A stretch of 64,000 bases of DNA from Ignavibacteria bacterium (GTDB lineage: Bacteria; Bacteroidota; Ignavibacteria; UBA10030; F1-140-MAGs086). The position numbers were made by a program, and so were the translations under genes. The notes beneath the pieces are model-generated. The model ran no database searches. It saw only the letters and a program-made list of their open reading frames with translations, and was not told the origin of the DNA. The stretch covers positions 4,832 through 68,831 of the forward strand of contig VGWC01000002.1 in assembly GCA_016873775.1 (NCBI GenBank). Reading direction: 5' to 3'. Positions 15,383-23,623 of this stretch are shown piece by piece. Position 1 is the first letter of the stretch, and every line of letters begins with the position of its first letter.

Positions 15383-16933
15383 TTATTCATTCGTCACAGA
15401 AATAAATTCTCTCTCAATCGTATGAACAATTTCCTTCAATGTTTCAATATCGAAAGAAATATCTCTATCCTTATCAACGAATGGAATGCCAAGCCCGTTA
15501 CGAATCATTTCGAAAAAGTTTTTCGTTCCTTCACCAAGTTGCGCTTTCGGATTTTGTCGCAAACGAAAATCAATCGCTTGACACGAGCAGAGAATTTCAA
15601 TCGCAATAATGTATTCAACATTGGAAACAACTTCTGCCGCGTGGCGTGCAGCAATTGTTCCCATCGAGTTGTGGTCTTCCTGATTCGCAGAAGTCGGAAT
15701 TGAATCACCGCTTGCGGGATGAATGAGAACTTTGTTTTCGGAAACGAGGGAAGCAGCAGTATATTGCGCAATCATCAAACCGGATTGAACGCCGCCATCA
15801 ACACACAGAAACGCAGGTAAACCGTTATTATGATTTTTGTCGAGAAGTTTTGCAATGCGACGTTCGGAAATATTTCCAAGTTCGGCAATTGCAAGTTTTA
15901 AGAAATCTAATGCAAGTGCGAGCGGTTGTCCGTGAAAATTTCCTGCGCTGACAACTTCATTTTCATCAGCAAAAATATGCGGATTATCGGTAACGGAATT
16001 AAGTTCGATTTCGATGATTGCTTGCACATACGAAAGCGCATCGAACGTTGCTCCGTGAACTTGAGGAATACATCGCAGCGAATACGAGTCTTGAATTTTA
16101 TCGTTCGTGTCGTCATCAACGCAATCGAGCAATGAACTTCCGCTTGTAAATTCCCGAATCATATTCGCAACAAATTGCTGTCCAACATACGGACGAAGTT
16201 TTTGCACATTTGACTGAAACGGAGAACTCTTTCCTTTCAATGCTTCAAGCGATAACGATGCAGCGACGTTTGCTAACTTAAAAAGATTTTTTGCATCGCC
16301 AAGTGCAAGCGTTCCGACTGCGAGCATTGCTTGTGTTCCATTCAACAACGCAAGCCCTTCTTTCGCTTGAAGTATGAGCGGCGGAATTTTCATTTGCTCC
16401 AACGCTTCTTTTCCCGTTACAACTTCGCCATATTCACCGATTGCAGCCCAACCTTCGCCAATCATTACCGAAGCGATATGCGAAAGCGGAGCCAAATCTC
16501 CACTAGAACCAACAGAACCTTTCGACGGGACAACGGGATGAACTTGTTTATTCAACATTGCGAGCAGCATTTCGACAACTTCAACACGTACACCGGAATA
16601 TCCCGCCGCAAGCGCATTCGCTCGAAGCAATATCATCGCGCGTACAACTTCATCGGGAAATGGTTCGCCAACTCCCGCGCAATGACTCAACACAAGATTC
16701 CGCTGTAATTCCTCAACTTGATTTTGTTGCAAACGAACATTTTGAAATGCGCCGAACCCCGTCGTAACTCCATACACGCTTTTATTTTGCTTCACTGCAT
16801 CTTCAATCCATTTTCGAGAAGCAAGCATTTTCTTTTTTGCAGATGGAGAAAGCGTTACTTCCTGAAAATTTCTTGCAACGGAGAAAATATTTTCGATGGT
16901 GAGTGATGTGCCGGTGAGTTCGAGTGGAGACAT
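15383..16933 (-). CDS. hutH: Histidine ammonia-lyase
   Basis: GSVGSSGDLAPLSH is the MIO-forming triad region, here Ser-Ser-Gly. LSHCAGVG carries the Ser-His selectivity pair of HALs. TGFG is at the N-terminus. Length is 516 aa. Confidence 0.85.
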   Translation of the reverse strand: MSPLELTGTSLTIENIFSVARNFQEVTLSPSAKKKMLASRKWIEDAVKQNKSVYGVTTGFGAFQNVRLQQNQVEELQRNLVLSHCAGVGEPFPDEVVRAMILLRANALAAGYSGVRVEVVEMLLAMLNKQVHPVVPSKGSVGSSGDLAPLSHIASVMIGEGWAAIGEYGEVVTGKEALEQMKIPPLILQAKEGLALLNGTQAMLAVGTLALGDAKNLFKLANVAASLSLEALKGKSSPFQSNVQKLRPYVGQQFVANMIREFTSGSSLLDCVDDDTNDKIQDSYSLRCIPQVHGATFDALSYVQAIIEIELNSVTDNPHIFADENEVVSAGNFHGQPLALALDFLKLAIAELGNISERRIAKLLDKNHNNGLPAFLCVDGGVQSGLMIAQYTAASLVSENKVLIHPASGDSIPTSANQEDHNSMGTIAARHAAEVVSNVEYIIAIEILCSCQAIDFRLRQNPKAQLGEGTKNFFEMIRNGLGIPFVDKDRDISFDIETLKEIVHTIEREFISVTNE

Positions 16934-16992
16934 AGTTGTTGTTTGTTAACGGTTATTAGTTCATTGATGTAATACAAGAAATATTTTTTTTA

Positions 16993-17087
16993 GAAAATAG
17001 AATACAGATGTCACGGATTTTGCTAATGTTCACTGATTCCTTTATCTTCGAATAATCTGTTGTATCAGCGTCATCCGTGTTCTATTT
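16993..17087. repeat. Inverted-repeat (MITE-like) element, AAATAGAACAC..GATGA family
   Basis: The left arm is aaaatagaatacagatgtcacggatttt and the right arm is atcagcgtcatccgtgttctattt, which is its reverse complement. Sibling copies are at 48124-48217 and 59559-59655. Confidence 0.6.
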
Positions 17088-17181
17088 CTTACTTTAACAT
17101 AACTTCAGTCAGTTCAAATGAATTAACGGTACTACAATTAACTGATAACATATAACAATTAACATAATAACGATTTTGCTT

Positions 17182-18603
17182 TTATTTCAACAATGATTGA
17201 ATTGAAGAAAGAAGTTGAGGACGAGAAACAACAACTTGCGCTTGCTTTGTCGCTTTGATGTATTCTTCTTTGTTCGATGCATCAACATTTTTTCCAGCTC
17301 GTAAATCTTTTAACGTAACTTCGTTCTTTTCAAATTCGTTTGAGCCGATAATAACGGCAAGCGGAATTTGCATTTTGTTGGCGTATTGCAATTGCTTCCC
17401 CAATCCTTTTTCTTCTCCGAGATAAAGTTCCGTGTTAATACCGGCGCTGCGTAATTCACGGGTAAGTTGTTGGTAATCGAGCATTTTATCTTTTTCCATC
17501 ACTGTTACAAGCACATGCGCAGTGGAAGAAACAGTTTCAAGTCGCTCAAGTTTTTGTAACGCGGCAAGCAATCTATCAATTCCTGTTGATGCGCCAACTG
17601 CGGGAATATTTTTCCCGAGAAATCGCTGCACTAAATCGTCATAGCGTCCTCCTCCAAAAACAGAACCAAATTCCGGTGCATCGAGTAATATTGCTTCAAA
17701 CACAGGTCCGGTGTAATAATCTAATCCGCGAGCAAGAGAAAAATCAATCGTAATTTTTTCGTCGGAAAGTTTGAGCGCATCGAGAGAAGAACATATTTCT
17801 TTTAACTCGTTGATTCCTTCTTGTGCAGAAGATACATTGGTAAAGAGACGTTCAATGTTAACAAGCGATTCGTTTCTTGTCGCGTTTGGTAAATCAAGGA
17901 ACTGTTTTATTTTTGTAACGCTCTCATCATTTAGTCCAAGTCCACGAATGGTATCGCCCGACACATCAACTCTTCCTTCCGTTAATTCCAATGCAACTTC
18001 ATCGAAACTAATTTTATCGAGTTTATCAAGAATACGAAAAACATTTTTTCCTAATCCCTGAGGTACGTTCGCAAAATCTAAAAGTGCATTGAGTATTTTT
18101 CTATTGCTGAATCGCAGACGAAATCGCTCAATTCCCAAAGCAGAGAGAACATCGTACATCCCGCAAAGTATTTCAGTATCTGCCGCCATTGAAGAACTTC
18201 CAACTGTATCTAAATCAAATTGAATGAATTCTCGAAATCTTCCCGGGTCAGGTTTATCTGCTCTCCAAACTGGTGCAACATGATAGCGACGAAATGGTTT
18301 CGGTAATTCGGAATATTGAGATACTACGCGAGCGAGTGGGACAGTTAAATCGAATCGTAATGCAATGTCTTCTCCCTCTGGGATTTTTGAACGGAAAATA
18401 TTTTTAGATGTATCACCGTGCCCAACCAATGTTTCAACATATTCTAACGCCGGTGTATCAAGGGGAACAAATCCATATCGCTCAAAAACTGTTCGCACGG
18501 TTTCGATAATTTTTCTTCGTGCGATAACTGTTTCGGGAAGATAATCGCGCATTCCTTTAACAGTGCGAGGTTCGATTATTTTATTTTGGTTTTCGTTCGA
18601 CAT
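17182..18603 (-). CDS. hisS: Histidine--tRNA ligase
   Basis: VKGMRDYLPE is the class II aaRS motif, with GGRYD and the anticodon-binding C-terminus. The start is chosen at Met 18603 (MSNENQ...) because the further-upstream Mets lie in repeat DNA. Confidence 0.9.
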   Translation of the reverse strand: MSNENQNKIIEPRTVKGMRDYLPETVIARRKIIETVRTVFERYGFVPLDTPALEYVETLVGHGDTSKNIFRSKIPEGEDIALRFDLTVPLARVVSQYSELPKPFRRYHVAPVWRADKPDPGRFREFIQFDLDTVGSSSMAADTEILCGMYDVLSALGIERFRLRFSNRKILNALLDFANVPQGLGKNVFRILDKLDKISFDEVALELTEGRVDVSGDTIRGLGLNDESVTKIKQFLDLPNATRNESLVNIERLFTNVSSAQEGINELKEICSSLDALKLSDEKITIDFSLARGLDYYTGPVFEAILLDAPEFGSVFGGGRYDDLVQRFLGKNIPAVGASTGIDRLLAALQKLERLETVSSTAHVLVTVMEKDKMLDYQQLTRELRSAGINTELYLGEEKGLGKQLQYANKMQIPLAVIIGSNEFEKNEVTLKDLRAGKNVDASNKEEYIKATKQAQVVVSRPQLLSSIQSLLK

Positions 18604-18652
18604 AAAATAGAATTTTACATTTGACATTTTATATTTTAGATTGAAACAAAAT

Positions 18653-18674
18653 TGTAAAATGTTCAATATAAAAT
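18653..18674 (-). promoter_or_regulatory. 22-nt motif TGTAAAATGTTCAATATAAAAT in the hisS leader, with an exact second copy at 21963-21984
   Basis: Exact 22-mer duplicate seen directly. On the coding (minus) strand it reads ATTTTATATTGAACATTTTACA, followed 40-50 nt later by ATCTAAAAT.TAAAAT and then the ATG. Confidence 0.5.
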
Positions 18675-18730
18675 GTAAAAAAAAATGTCGGTTTCGAACT
18701 CACCTAGAGACGACAACTGACACTTGAAAG

Positions 18731-18804
18731 TACTGATGACTGGATTCGAACCGGTGACCCTCAGATCCACAATCTGATGCTCTAACCAACTGAGCTACAT
18801 CAGC
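18731..18804 (-). tRNA. tRNA-His (anticodon GTG), atypical: A73, no encoded G-1, G1-U72
   Basis: Manual cloverleaf. Acceptor GCTGATG/CATCAGT, D-arm GCTC-AGTTGGTTA-GAGC, anticodon stem TCAGA/TCTGA with loop TTGTGGA, T-arm ACCGG-TTCGAAT-CCAGT. No CCA is encoded. It lies 49 nt upstream of hisS on the same strand. Confidence 0.7.
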
Positions 18805-18841: not shown

Positions 18842-20029
18842 CTACCGAACAAGAAACGCCAATAAAACCGTTGTTACGATTGCATATTGCAACGAAGTCG
18901 AAATCTTTCCATAATTATTTTTTCCCCAATGCCAACCGAATGCGAGAACATACATTGCCGCGATAAGTGCAAAAGACAACACAAAACATTCAACACAACC
19001 AAGTGTTTTACCGTATTGGTGAATCATACTCCAATGTATCATTACCGAACCATACACAACCCAAAGGTGAACGACGTACACTAATAACGATTCTTGTCCG
19101 AATATTTTCATTGCAGAAACAATTGATGAGAAATTTTTACGAATTACAATAATGTGACTTTGCAATGCTGATTCAATTTTTTGTTCGTACATCCACCACC
19201 CGCAGAAAAACAAAACAACAAAGCCAAGCCGCATAAAAAAGAACTCCGGGCTTGCTTTCCAAAAATTGTGGTTCGGATAAATATCAAAGGGAAGCATTTC
19301 AATGAGAAGTGAAAGTATAATTCCACTCACTGCGAGCAACGAAATATTTTTTATGAATTGCTGCTCACGATTATTCTCTTTCGCATTCATAAACATTGCG
19401 CCGATAATTGTTCCACTCATCAAAAATGCAGACCAAGGAAAAAGTGGAAATTGTGATTTTACATTCATCGTCAAATACGGACGAATCCACATAGGGGAAT
19501 TACTATAATCCAATTCACGAATTATCGGACTACTAAAAATAATGAGAAGTGCAATTATTCCGGCAACAAAAAAATAAATTTTCTTATTACGAATAATTGC
19601 AACAAGAAATGCAAGAAATATCAACGTCAATGAAATCGCTTGTAAAACATCTGCCTGATAAAACGAAGAAAGAATTTTTTCGTCGTGTAATTCCGTCATC
19701 ATTCTCAATGAAAACAATGGAAGGTGCAACGCATAACCGACACAAAAAATAAAAAGCAATCGCGCATTATATCTCCAAAATGTTGAACCGAGCGAAATGA
19801 ACCTGTCCCATTTTTTATGTATCGCAATAGCCAACGATAATCCGGCGCAAAATAAAAACGACGGCGCGACAAATCCATTGCAGAACGTCAGTACTTTGTA
19901 CGAAAACTCATCCCGCAAAACAGGAAGTAGCAACGCATTGACTACGTGTGTTTCAATCATAAAAAACACCGCGCAACCTCGAAATATATCTATGAAATGA
20001 AAGCGAGAAGCCGATGGAGAATGATTCAT
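18842..20029 (-). CDS. DUF1624-family (heparan-alpha-glucosaminide N-acetyltransferase-like) membrane protein
   Basis: N-terminal HFIDIFRGCAVFFMIETHV is typical of DUF1624/acyltransferase-3-like proteins. The protein has about 10 TM helices. Confidence 0.55.
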   Translation of the reverse strand: MNHSPSASRFHFIDIFRGCAVFFMIETHVVNALLLPVLRDEFSYKVLTFCNGFVAPSFLFCAGLSLAIAIHKKWDRFISLGSTFWRYNARLLFIFCVGYALHLPLFSLRMMTELHDEKILSSFYQADVLQAISLTLIFLAFLVAIIRNKKIYFFVAGIIALLIIFSSPIIRELDYSNSPMWIRPYLTMNVKSQFPLFPWSAFLMSGTIIGAMFMNAKENNREQQFIKNISLLAVSGIILSLLIEMLPFDIYPNHNFWKASPEFFFMRLGFVVLFFCGWWMYEQKIESALQSHIIVIRKNFSSIVSAMKIFGQESLLVYVVHLWVVYGSVMIHWSMIHQYGKTLGCVECFVLSFALIAAMYVLAFGWHWGKNNYGKISTSLQYAIVTTVLLAFLVR

Positions 20030-20206: not shown

Positions 20207-21901
20207 TCACGCTTTTCCCCTCTTCCCTTGCTCTTCCACCGTAAAAATCCACGCGGCAAGTTTTCCTGGCTCAATTGAATTGAAATCGTTCCAATAACTT
20301 TTTCTACGGAAGTACCGAGAACTTGTTTCTTCTACAGAAATTTTTTCGGCTTCGGCAATTATTATGTTCATTCGCGATTTCCATTTTTCCATATTCGCTA
20401 CACGCAAATCAACCCAACCATCGCGCGACCACGTTGCAATTTTTTCGGAAGAAATTTTCAATTCATTCTCGCCAAGAAACGCAGGAATTTTTATTTCCTT
20501 TCCACGCAACAATGTTTTTCCATCGGGCATTAAAATAGGAATGCCGACAGAAATAATTTGCGAGCGTAGTGATTTGTTCTTTGCAATTTCATTCGATAAT
20601 TGTTTTGAAAGTATGTTCGCATTCGCTTTCATCACTGATCTCATTGACAAAAAACATTTCTTTAACAAATATGCTTCAAACAATAGTTTTGAAAGTCGCG
20701 GCGGACCAAGAATTTCAAACGCTATACTCTCAACGTTGTGTTTCTTTTCCAACTCTTCCAATTTTTGAATTGCACTGTTCCACATAAATCCCGCGCGATA
20801 CGTTGGGTCAAGCACAGCATTATCGAGCGCGTTCACAATATCGTGTCCTGTGTTTCCGCCTTTTATTTCCATCACAACAGCATCGGCTATTTCTTCCGGC
20901 GTAACATATTCCATTTGCCCCGCAGTGGAAATTGCTTCGAATTCATTTTTAGAAAACAATCCGTTCTCTCCCGTATCAATGAATACCGATTTCATCGGCT
21001 GATTCAATTCAATACCGATTTTTTCATCGCGAATTTTTATTATCTCTTTCAGTTGAAATCCATTCTTCGGCGGACAATCAACAAGTGAAATTACTTTACC
21101 GCGTTTTTTTATTTCTCCGTACGAAATTTTTTTCCACGCAATCGCCGCCGTCGGTTTTATCTCTTTGATAATCGGAGCATCAGGAGTTCTTCCCATCAAA
21201 AACAACAACATCGTATGCGCGCCGGCAACAGAAGATTTTGAAAGCAACACGCGCGACGGACGTTCTTCGCTATGCGTGTACGGGATGTTGAGCCCCATTC
21301 CTCCTGTTCCACTCGTTCCGATTTTCACATAAATTTTTGTTTGCAGAAGTTGCATCGAACGATATAATAATTGCACGTGGCGAATAAGTTGCGGCGTGTA
21401 TTGTGTGCAGAGCAATCGTTCGATTTTTTCTTTTACGTTTCCGTTTTGTTTATCCAACGCTTGCAACACATCGCGCGAACTTTGAAAAATATCTTGATAC
21501 GCAATTCCCGTTGCAGAGTTCACGCAATCAACAACAATCGACGGTTTGAATTTTTTCAGAAGTTGATACACCGATGATTGCTCCAGAACCGTTGAAGTCA
21601 TTTCATTGAGAATATCGTCAATCAACGTTCTGCGATATTTTTCGTTGGAAAGAATTTCTTCGCGCGGCAAATCTTTGAATGCATTGCGCACAAAAATATT
21701 TCCCCACCACGATTGAAACATTTCTTTTTTCAACTTCGGATATTCTTTGCGAAGTTGCGTAACTGCATCATCCGTTTCTTCTTTTTTCAGCGAAGTGATG
21801 ATAACTTTTTTCGGTTGCTCTTCAAGAATACGATGACAAACTGCGGAGCCAACCAATCCCCAGCCGCCAATTACTAATACTGTTTGACCTTTGATGTTCA
21901 T
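20207..21901 (-). CDS. Uncharacterised 564-aa protein with an N-terminal NAD(P)-binding Rossmann fold
   Basis: GQTVLVIGGWGLVGSAV is a GxxGxxG Rossmann motif. The remaining 480 aa carry no motif I recognise. Confidence 0.5.
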   Translation of the reverse strand: MNIKGQTVLVIGGWGLVGSAVCHRILEEQPKKVIITSLKKEETDDAVTQLRKEYPKLKKEMFQSWWGNIFVRNAFKDLPREEILSNEKYRRTLIDDILNEMTSTVLEQSSVYQLLKKFKPSIVVDCVNSATGIAYQDIFQSSRDVLQALDKQNGNVKEKIERLLCTQYTPQLIRHVQLLYRSMQLLQTKIYVKIGTSGTGGMGLNIPYTHSEERPSRVLLSKSSVAGAHTMLLFLMGRTPDAPIIKEIKPTAAIAWKKISYGEIKKRGKVISLVDCPPKNGFQLKEIIKIRDEKIGIELNQPMKSVFIDTGENGLFSKNEFEAISTAGQMEYVTPEEIADAVVMEIKGGNTGHDIVNALDNAVLDPTYRAGFMWNSAIQKLEELEKKHNVESIAFEILGPPRLSKLLFEAYLLKKCFLSMRSVMKANANILSKQLSNEIAKNKSLRSQIISVGIPILMPDGKTLLRGKEIKIPAFLGENELKISSEKIATWSRDGWVDLRVANMEKWKSRMNIIIAEAEKISVEETSSRYFRRKSYWNDFNSIEPGKLAAWIFTVEEQGKRGKA

Positions 21902-22014: not shown

Positions 22015-22929
22015 CTACTTATATCCATACTCTCTCAAAAACGTATCGTTCTCGCGCCAATCTTCTCGCACTTTCACAAAGAGTTCAAGAAAAACTTTTC
22101 TTCCGAGAAATTGTTCGATGTCTTTTCGCGCTCGTGTTCCGATGTTTTTCAGCATCATACCTCTTGCGCCAATCACGATTCCTTTTTGCGACTGCCGCTC
22201 CACAACAATCTCAGCAGAAATTTTATCGGGCTTTCCAGGACGTTCAATAAATTCAACAACATTCACTGCGGTGGAATAGGGAATTTCTTGTTTGAGAAGT
22301 TGAAAAACTTTTTCGCGAATAATTTCCGAAACAAAAAATCGCTCGTTCTTATCGCTCAATTCATCTTCGGAATAATACGGCGGATGAAGCGGCAAATACA
22401 TTTCAATCGTTTTCAGTAAATCGGAAATACCAACCATATTCAACGCAGAAATCGGAATGTATTCTTTGAATGCAAACTGTTGGGAAATCATTGAAATGAT
22501 TTCTAAAATTTTTCCTTTCTCCACCGCATCAACTTTATTGATAATAAGAAAAGTTGGCTTCGTCGTTTTATGAATTGCTTGAAAAGAAATATCGTCGCCA
22601 ACTTTTTCTAATCGCTGCGGCGAGTGAATGTCGAAATCCGTTGCGTCAATCATCAGCAACACAACGTCCGCATCATCGAGCGAACTATGCGCGGACTGCA
22701 TCATTACGCTGTGCAATTTATATTTCGGCTCGATAATTCCCGGCGTATCGAGAAAAAGAATTTGACAATTCTCTCTGTTATAAATTCCTAAAATCTTGTC
22801 GCGCGTAGTTTGCGGTTTCGGTGTTACGATGGAAAGTTTATGCTGCAAAATACAATTCATCAACGTTGATTTTCCAACATTCGGTTTTCCAACAATTGCT
22901 ACAAAACCTGCGCGAAAGTTATTCGTCAT
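22015..22929 (-). CDS. era: GTPase Era
   Basis: GKPNVGKSTL is G1, DTPG is G3 and NKVD is G4. The C-terminal KH domain (VIGARGMMLKNIGTRARKDIE...LELFVKV) has the KH-type fold of Era. Confidence 0.9.
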   Translation of the reverse strand: MTNNFRAGFVAIVGKPNVGKSTLMNCILQHKLSIVTPKPQTTRDKILGIYNRENCQILFLDTPGIIEPKYKLHSVMMQSAHSSLDDADVVLLMIDATDFDIHSPQRLEKVGDDISFQAIHKTTKPTFLIINKVDAVEKGKILEIISMISQQFAFKEYIPISALNMVGISDLLKTIEMYLPLHPPYYSEDELSDKNERFFVSEIIREKVFQLLKQEIPYSTAVNVVEFIERPGKPDKISAEIVVERQSQKGIVIGARGMMLKNIGTRARKDIEQFLGRKVFLELFVKVREDWRENDTFLREYGYK

Positions 22930-23623
22930 TTGTAGTGTTCTTTATTCTTTTTTCTAATGCAACTTGCCTCAACAACGGCGAAATCCTATATCTGTCATCT
23001 CCCAACTCTCTATGCAACGCAGAAAGCACGGCGACTACATTTTCATAACCGATTTTTTCTCCCCATTCAATCGGACCAAACGGATAATTTGTTCCGAGTT
23101 TCATTGCCGTATCAATCGCTTCGGGAGTTGCGATTTCTTCCTGCAGCGCAAAGAACGATTCATTCACAAGCATACACACGATGCGCGGCAACACCATTCC
23201 CACTCTATCTTGCACTACGGAAAATTGTTTTCCGATTTGCAGAACAAATGTTTGCACAACGTCCCATGTTTTTTTTGTAACATTTGTCGGAGATGCAATT
23301 TCAATAAGTTCACCCGAAAGAAAAGTTGGTAAGGCAGAAATTCCAAGCAGTTGTGTTTCTTTGTCGAGCCACAACAACTGTTCGCTTGCAGTAACAGTAA
23401 TTGATGAAGAAAGAATAGCTGTGTTTTTATATAGCGAACGGAGAAATTTTAAATTCTCTTTCTTCTTTTCAACATCACAAAGCGACAACTCAATTGCAAG
23501 AAAAATATTTTGCGATGAATGGAAGTTTATAACAACGTCAAATCCTTTCATTTCGCAAAATGATTTCCATTCATTAAGTAATGGTTCTTCGCCGAGGAGG
23601 AGGAGGTTTTTTTTATCAATCAT
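22919..23623 (-). CDS. 3-hydroxyacyl-CoA dehydrogenase family homolog with degenerate active-site motifs (probable pseudoenzyme)
   Basis: It aligns along its full length with Hbd-type 3HCDH (C-terminal domain VGMVLPRIVCMLVNESFFALQEEIATPEAIDTAMKLGTNYPFGPIEWGEKIGY). However, the GxGxMG NAD motif is GEEPLL and the catalytic His of HFFNP is absent (GISALPTF). Confidence 0.6.
   Translation of the reverse strand: MIDKKNLLLLGEEPLLNEWKSFCEMKGFDVVINFHSSQNIFLAIELSLCDVEKKKENLKFLRSLYKNTAILSSSITVTASEQLLWLDKETQLLGISALPTFLSGELIEIASPTNVTKKTWDVVQTFVLQIGKQFSVVQDRVGMVLPRIVCMLVNESFFALQEEIATPEAIDTAMKLGTNYPFGPIEWGEKIGYENVVAVLSALHRELGDDRYRISPLLRQVALEKRIKNTTNDE

Follow-up and report, generated by a model that had tools for sequence, protein, structure and literature searches.

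hadL, a gene between mnmA and era in an Ignavibacteria genome, resembles a free-standing form of the non-catalytic half of PaaH

In the genome of an Ignavibacteria bacterium, a gene for a protein of 234 amino acids lies between mnmA and era. The gene, here called hadL, falls within a stretch of 64,000 nucleotides that we refer to as the window (GenBank assembly GCA_016873775.1, contig VGWC01000002.1, positions 4,832 to 68,831). In the source metagenome-assembled genome (MAG), hadL is annotated only as a hypothetical protein. An earlier note on this DNA described it as a homologue of 3-hydroxyacyl-CoA dehydrogenases (HADs) that has lost its catalytic machinery, is co-transcribed with the gene for the GTPase Era and looks like a pseudoenzyme recruited to a non-catalytic role. 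Two questions follow. What kind of protein is this, and why does its gene stand beside era? Judged from its sequence, hadL encodes a maintained, non-catalytic protein of the HAD fold. By homology, it is the free-standing form of one half of the PaaH-type 3-hydroxyacyl-CoA dehydrogenases, the half made up of a reduced Rossmann domain and the second dimerisation domain.

The open reading frame (ORF) exists as the earlier note described it; it begins with ATG and no longer frame is possible. The two-domain HAD fold, with its C-terminal helical domain, is present. That domain gives the sole above-threshold Pfam match (PF00725, E=8e-19, residues 142-232). The NAD-binding domain PF02737 stays below threshold, scoring 12.5 bits where 22 are required, and its match is limited to profile positions 78-179. 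The AlphaFold2 model of HadL (predicted local distance difference test score, pLDDT, 94.2; predicted template modelling score, pTM, 0.89) shows a complete though trimmed Rossmann-like sheet followed by the helical domain, with strands and helices predicted at high confidence.

Can such a protein still catalyse? We aligned it with canonical Hbd and HAD enzymes, with fused enzymes of the PaaH type and with further degenerate homologues, numbering residues as in Clostridium Hbd; column counts refer to 31 canonical and 46 stand-alone degenerate sequences. The dinucleotide-binding loop, GAGTMG in canonical enzymes, reads GEEPLL in HadL, and the loop of the stand-alone family follows the pattern G-[DE]-x-P-L-[VL]. 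Asp31, the acidic residue that ends strand beta2 and binds the NAD ribose, is replaced by Phe34. Catalytic Ser117 is found in 30 of the 31 canonical sequences, the remaining cell being a gap; in HadL it is Ile75. Catalytic His138 is Ser96; all 31 canonical sequences have the His, but not one of the 46 stand-alone proteins does, their column holding G, N, A or S. Asn141 has become Pro99. Catalytic Asn188, again found in 31 of 31 canonical sequences, is Pro146, and Pro occupies this column in 33 of the 46 stand-alone proteins. Between strands beta2 and beta3, HadL also lacks about 45 residues that form a helical insert in canonical HADs, an insert that is part of the clamp on the CoA and NAD moieties. 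Two residues are retained, Glu150 as Glu108 and Lys95 as Lys54; Glu108, Lys54 and the pair Asn154-Glu155 are invariant. The losses at catalytic and cofactor positions are consistent over the 46 stand-alone degenerate sequences.

One way out would be a catalytic site read in a different register. There is no alternative GxGxxG within the first 60-80 residues of any family member examined, and escape by an alternative register is therefore excluded. The pseudoenzyme claim of the earlier note thus stands. The GEEPLL and GISALPT peptides that it named both appear on translation, the NAD fingerprint and the catalytic His are gone, and of the catalytic positions in the alignment only Glu150 (Glu108) stays. 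The damage goes further than had been noticed: Ser117, Asn188 and the residues between beta2 and beta3 are lost as well.

A protein this altered might be a gene in decay. When hadL is compared with its orthologues in two related genomes, the ratio of nonsynonymous to synonymous substitution rates (dN/dS) is 0.16-0.19, matching that of era in the same genomes, with dS saturated in the comparison. HadL shows 69% identity where Era, compared over the same genomes, shows 65%, and the ORF is intact in at least five diverged lineages. Given 926 homologues, the high pLDDT and the low dN/dS, hadL is not a chance frame. Across relatives, the dead version is conserved rather than decaying.

Where does this protein come from? 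Its best match among solved structures is E. coli PaaH (3MOG): in HMMER comparisons, residues 347-468 score 82 bits, against 38 bits for residues 121-266 in the catalytic N-terminal half. The best NCBIfam model is likewise the 507-residue PaaH-like PRK08268/NF006124, matched at positions 351-500. PaaH is described as arising from two fused HAD genes and as imitating the HAD homodimer (PMC4498308), and its second Rossmann domain (residues 305-383) is reduced, without catalytic residues or an NAD cleft (PMC4498308; PMC9493321). The dead half of PaaH is thus already known. HadL shares with it the reduced Rossmann domain, the second dimerisation domain and the absence of catalytic residues and NAD cleft. 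It differs from the E. coli C-terminal half in being encoded by a separate gene rather than as part of a fusion of ~500 residues, in retaining more of the Rossmann sheet, first strand included (234 residues against ~190), and in adjoining no catalytic half or paa gene within the window.

At E<1e-5, a database search with HadL yielded 926 homologues, the majority of them 230-290 residues long and from metagenomes of Ignavibacteria and other Bacteroidota; their labels are mostly '3-hydroxybutyryl-CoA dehydrogenase' or 'family protein'. In a neighbour-joining tree of 83 sequences, the stand-alone degenerate proteins and the C-terminal halves of fused enzymes of ~520 residues split from the canonical HADs and the PaaH N-terminal halves in 100 of 100 bootstraps. 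The window clade is monophyletic in 97 of 100, and the clade linked to era is nested within a group of Ignavibacteria and Bacteroidota proteins encoded adjacent to a HAD in 83 of 100. Most family-invariant columns lie in the C-terminal domain, and HadL keeps all the invariant residues. To read hadL as an Hbd that degenerated within its own lineage would accordingly be mistaken; it belongs to a large, old stand-alone family orthologous to the dead C-terminal half of PaaH. Hbd homodimers (for example, 4KUE, 6AA8 and 9FBD) lie on the opposite side of the deepest split in the tree and possess what HadL lacks, namely GxGxxG, Asp31, the insert of ~45 residues and Ser117, His138 and Asn188. Domain E of the monomeric multifunctional enzymes (FadB/FadJ and MFE-1) is a duplicate of the helical domain only, fused in cis and without a reduced Rossmann domain, and its similarity to HadL is weak (E 1e-5 to 1e-7). 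Members of the alignment (A1) match no Pfam family beyond 3HCDH and 3HCDH_N, save for two marginal DUF5936 matches, and the reduced-Rossmann Pfam model was not detected among them.

Two further observations concern the fused enzymes. His is kept at the His138 position in four of the six aligned PaaH C-terminal halves (for example, GFHALPP), probably the four of Solirubrobacterales type. And in four Solirubrobacterales/Conexibacter loci (L036, L041, L042 and L049), the degenerate half is C-terminal in frames of 800-1050 residues, which exceed the usual PaaH architecture of ~520 residues and may be larger fusions.

If HadL corresponds to one half of PaaH, where is the other half when the two are encoded apart? 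We scanned one genome per species, obtaining 80 family loci with 6-kb flanks. In the closest of these (L001-L014; 45-50% identity), the degenerate gene starts a few nucleotides from the stop of a gene for a canonical HAD of ~285 residues, which carries GxGxxG and G[ML]HFFNP. In five loci (L005, L006, L009, L010 and L011), the two reading frames share 4 nucleotides. Crotonase genes lie near the degenerate HAD in 14 loci and thiolase genes in 13, and two annotated contigs (L088 and L089) carry ECH, PaaA/PaaC, the canonical HAD, the degenerate HAD and a thiolase together. Because the adjacent canonical HADs cluster with PaaH N-terminal halves (60 of 60 bootstraps), we conclude that the gene pair is PaaH split in two. 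Split halves occur as separate adjacent genes in many Ignavibacteria, in other Bacteroidota, in Paenibacillus and in Chloroflexota (Anaerolineae). The degenerate members of these pairs, 230-300 residues long and encoded after the canonical HAD, are of the same family as HadL, with the same invariant residues, and the hadL clade nests within their group. Theirs abuts or overlaps the catalytic HAD gene in crotonase, PaaA-C and thiolase clusters; hadL lies between mnmA and era. The separation of catalytic and dead genes is gradual across lineages. An M1 peptidase gene stands between them in L088 and L089, L007 and L018 have them 1.6 kb apart, in L015 the distance reaches 5 kb, and about 27 loci, the orphans, have no canonical HAD within 6 kb.

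How, then, is the position beside era to be understood? The match to NF000908 begins at residue 5 of Era, which makes the era start codon at 22929 credible and the 11-nucleotide overlap of hadL and era real in the window, as the earlier note had it. The overlap is not a conserved feature: relatives have gaps of +8, +22 and +59 nucleotides. It is ordinary operon packing, not a conserved coupling device. The order mnmA-hadL-era-564-residue PF27054 gene is shared by the window, P0002 (71% identical; L081-83 and L091) and P0004 (61%; L084-86), and the short contig L087 of P0005 (55%) carries mnmA-hadL-era. Adjacency of mnmA and hadL is kept in L081-L087, L091 and L092. In the last of these (MnmA 67% and HadL 45% identical), the contig ends after mnmA-hadL; the tree places this hadL as sister to the era clade with 84 of 100 bootstraps. 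A gene of the Acyl_transf_3 family follows the 564-residue gene in the same order in the window, L081 and L165, directly so in the window and L081; in L084 one extra gene, for a protein of 318 residues, comes between the two.

Beyond this clade the arrangement disappears. In the 80 other family loci, the 6 kb on either side never contain era or mnmA. Some 45 further mnmA loci of Ignavibacteria-like type (54-62% identity) are free of both hadL and era in the 5 kb that follow mnmA; the clade's own mnmA is ~58% identical to that of other Ignavibacteria. Linkage to era is confined to the window, P0002/3, P0004 and P0005, with the mnmA side alone in L092. The mnmA-hadL-era arrangement is a rearrangement peculiar to a single Ignavibacteria clade, one that is narrow though deep. 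We also considered insertion of hadL into an ancestral mnmA-era pair, which is unsupported; in other Ignavibacteria-like loci, mnmA is not followed by era. The three genes are probably co-transcribed. A scan of 18.7-25.1 kb for sigma-70 promoters and intrinsic terminators found no site between mnmA, hadL and era, with counts at or below shuffled expectation and with consensus models that may not suit this phylum. A search of Rfam over 18-26 kb found a tRNA-His only.

What might a dead dehydrogenase subunit do? HadL is probably the non-catalytic dimer mate of a catalytic HAD subunit of the PaaH-N type. We infer the heterodimer, and a partner encoded elsewhere in the genome, from the architecture of 3MOG and from gene adjacency. 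This reading is the best supported because the family-invariant residues are kept and because the closest outgroups are the second gene of a split PaaH. In fused PaaH, a single polypeptide mimics the HAD homodimer, with the N-terminal half alone catalytic. HadL descends from the dead half of a split PaaH. It would partner a catalytic PaaH-N-type subunit by way of its conserved C-terminal helical domain and so complete a dimer-like architecture, itself neither binding NAD nor turning over substrate. In one clade the gene has left the paa/beta-oxidation cluster for the space between mnmA and era. The non-catalytic role is most likely older than that move. Recruitment to a non-catalytic role with Era is unsupported, given a linkage confined to one clade and an overlap that is not conserved.

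Several observations weigh against a dimer mate with a distant partner. No canonical HAD, crotonase or thiolase was found by tblastn in the window, and a hidden Markov model trained on 30 canonical HADs, when searched against every six-frame segment of the window, matched hadL only. The order mnmA-hadL-era persists in four or more lineages, with identity as low as 55%, and L092, a fifth lineage at 45% identity, has the mnmA side; this persistence could reflect a functional tie. With about 27 orphan loci lacking a nearby canonical HAD, a function independent of any partner is possible. Members of the era clade lack both the N-terminal extension and the C-terminal G-x-W-W-K tail of their HAD-adjacent relatives, the split pairs included. 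Finally, we found in the literature no experimental heterodimerisation of any split pair.

These points invite other explanations. HadL might form a homodimer through its C-terminal domain and act on its own as a sensor or buffer that binds acyl-CoA or CoA, rather than as a dehydrogenase subunit. The C-terminal domain is indeed conserved more strongly than in the catalytic N-type partners, keeping DIDTAMKLGxNYPxGPxEW where N-type subunits have diverged to IDRIxK..GGFxMGPFEL; the invariance of Glu108, Lys54 and Asn154-Glu155 and the many orphans without an adjacent HAD fit as well. We nevertheless find this doubtful: the helical insert, presumably the clamp on CoA and NAD, is deleted, and the same C-terminal motif occurs in fused PaaH C-terminal halves, where its role is intramolecular pairing. 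The neighbouring genes suggest a different possibility, that an orphan dead HAD has been co-opted as an accessory or scaffold for tRNA modification or 30S biogenesis, in company with MnmA and Era. The persistence of the mnmA-hadL-era operon speaks for it, as do five Chitinophagaceae loci in which hadL separately adjoins tsaB and two Ignavibacteria loci (L017 and L019) with a convergent miaA. Yet linkage to era or to other RNA-maturation genes is not conserved across distant taxa, hadL-tsaB being the only other hint; era and mnmA are missing from the flanks of all 80 other family loci, as are hadL and era downstream of the ~45 other mnmA genes. The remaining orphan contexts are mixed (M1 peptidase, purE, rhomboid, DUF2400 and secreted proteins), and miaA is convergent rather than part of an operon. 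HadL has an acidic pI of 5.2 and shows nothing recognisable as an RNA-binding feature, its conserved residues are all common to paa-linked and fused homologues, and the tRNA-gene pattern was noticed post hoc. Co-option at this locus is therefore unlikely. The broader proposition, that orphan dead HADs of Ignavibacteria and other Bacteroidota have been co-opted repeatedly as scaffolds in operons of tRNA modification or 30S maturation (mnmA-hadL-era and hadL-tsaB), is less likely still. If true, it would offer a bacterial parallel to the metabolic dehydrogenases that moonlight in mitochondrial RNase P and mitoribosome assembly.

Two further accounts find little support in the data on residues and selection. 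That HadL is still an enzyme, working through another register, cofactor or set of residues, is very improbable. It retains the overall HAD fold with a full beta-sheet, and Glu108 (Glu150) and Lys54 are conserved; against this, hydrophobic residues or Pro have mostly taken the place of GxGxxG, the acidic residue that binds ribose, Ser117, His138, Asn141 and Asn188, and all of these are replaced consistently over the 46 stand-alone members, with no second GxGxxG and a sub-threshold PF02737. It is scarcely credible that the frame between mnmA and era is a recent pseudogene or spurious. Only the bare annotation in the source MAG would favour such a reading, which we reject on the low dN/dS (with saturated dS), the intact ORF in at least five lineages, the pLDDT of 94 and a HadL no less conserved than Era. 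A dimer mate for a catalytic PaaH-N-type subunit thus remains the reading that we prefer.

What do these findings add to the known biology of PaaH? Its dead half is more than a curiosity of a fusion protein; it is also a large free-standing gene family. Apart from reviews of PaaH, we found in the literature no HAD pseudoenzyme or stand-alone reduced-Rossmann PaaH protein, nor, as far as it could be searched, a free-standing widespread family for the dead half relocated into a translation-related operon. Databases label the dead family as active 3-hydroxybutyryl-CoA dehydrogenase, and metabolic reconstructions that count such genes as Hbd in MAGs of Ignavibacteria or other Bacteroidota are wrong. 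The main practical value lies in correcting this annotation; for most purposes, no new mechanism is added. Genes that are fused, adjacent, separated and finally relocated form a series, with the mnmA-era location at its extreme end, and this series is also a natural test of whether a pseudoenzyme subunit stays tied to its partner or gains a new job.

Table 1. Positions of hadL, its altered motifs and the neighbouring genes in the window
Feature	Coordinates	Strand	Basis or remark
hadL, 234-aa catalytically degenerate HAD-fold protein	22919..23623	-	Stand-alone homologue of PaaH C-terminal half
Reduced Rossmann-like N-terminal domain, aa 1-141	23201..23623	-	Beta-sheet retained; NAD- and CoA-binding elements gone
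GEEPLL replacing the GxGxxG dinucleotide-binding loop	23576..23593	-	Translation and alignment
GISALPT replacing G[ML]HFFNP	23324..23344	-	Translation and alignment; His138 to Ser96, Asn141 to Pro99
LPR replacing VNR	23183..23191	-	Translation and alignment; Asn188 to Pro146
hadL C-terminal helical (dimerisation) domain	22928..23200	-	PF00725; DIDTAMKLGTNYPxGPxEW...RYR, highly conserved
Overlap of hadL stop and era start, 11 nt, ATGACGAATAA	22919..22929	-	
era, GTPase Era, 304 aa	22015..22929	-	NF000908 E=1e-109; MMR_HSR1 and KH_2; directly downstream of hadL
mnmA, tRNA 2-thiouridine(34) synthase, 373 aa	23693..24814	-	NF001138 E=2e-122; upstream of hadL, 69-nt gap
564-aa protein, Rossmann N-terminal	20207..21901	-	PF27054; part of clade-specific syntenic block
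Acyltransferase-3 family membrane protein	18842..20029	-	Part of clade-specific syntenic block

Among the family loci, a few recurrent neighbourhoods deserve mention. A gene for an M1-family peptidase recurs beside the degenerate HAD (L088:6151-8001, L089:1883-3538 and L030:6522-8516; also L028 and L072), and in L028 and L030 it lies directly downstream and overlaps it. A second subgroup of Ignavibacteria orphans, 223-227 residues long, is always divergent from a DUF2400/TIGR02757 gene (L016, L017, L019, L020 and L025-L027). Orphan members stand near tRNA-modification genes (tsaB, mnmA and miaA) more often than we would have expected. The hadL-tsaB loci come from five Chitinophagaceae genomes (L032, L035, L051, L062 and L072; for example, L035:5716-7079). 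There a TsaB-like gene (PF00814, 224-239 residues) lies on the same strand, its start abutting or overlapping the stop of the orphan degenerate HAD; upstream is a RidA gene in divergent orientation, and four of these loci carry an ArsR-type regulator and an MBL-rhodanese gene on the downstream side.

The other genes of the window are housekeeping genes, among them accD, panC, prmC, hisS and recQ. Divergence across the mnmA-hadL-era operon is uneven. Between the window and the P0002 genome (L081:4873-5994), mnmA is 91% identical (dS 0.67), while hadL and era are 69% and 65% identical (dS 1.2-1.4); recombination or very different constraint are possible causes. The 564-residue protein, which has an N-terminal Rossmann/SDR-like stretch and carries the precomputed annotation PF27054 Beta_methylindole_red_C, is 75-78% identical across the clade, compared with 62-65% for Era, and always occupies the same position. 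Farther along the same strand, a histidine-themed run (15383-18804, minus strand) comprises tRNA-His (18730-18804), histidyl-tRNA synthetase (17182-18666) and a histidine/aromatic ammonia-lyase (15383-16933). In L081, too, hisS and the lyase come after the same block.

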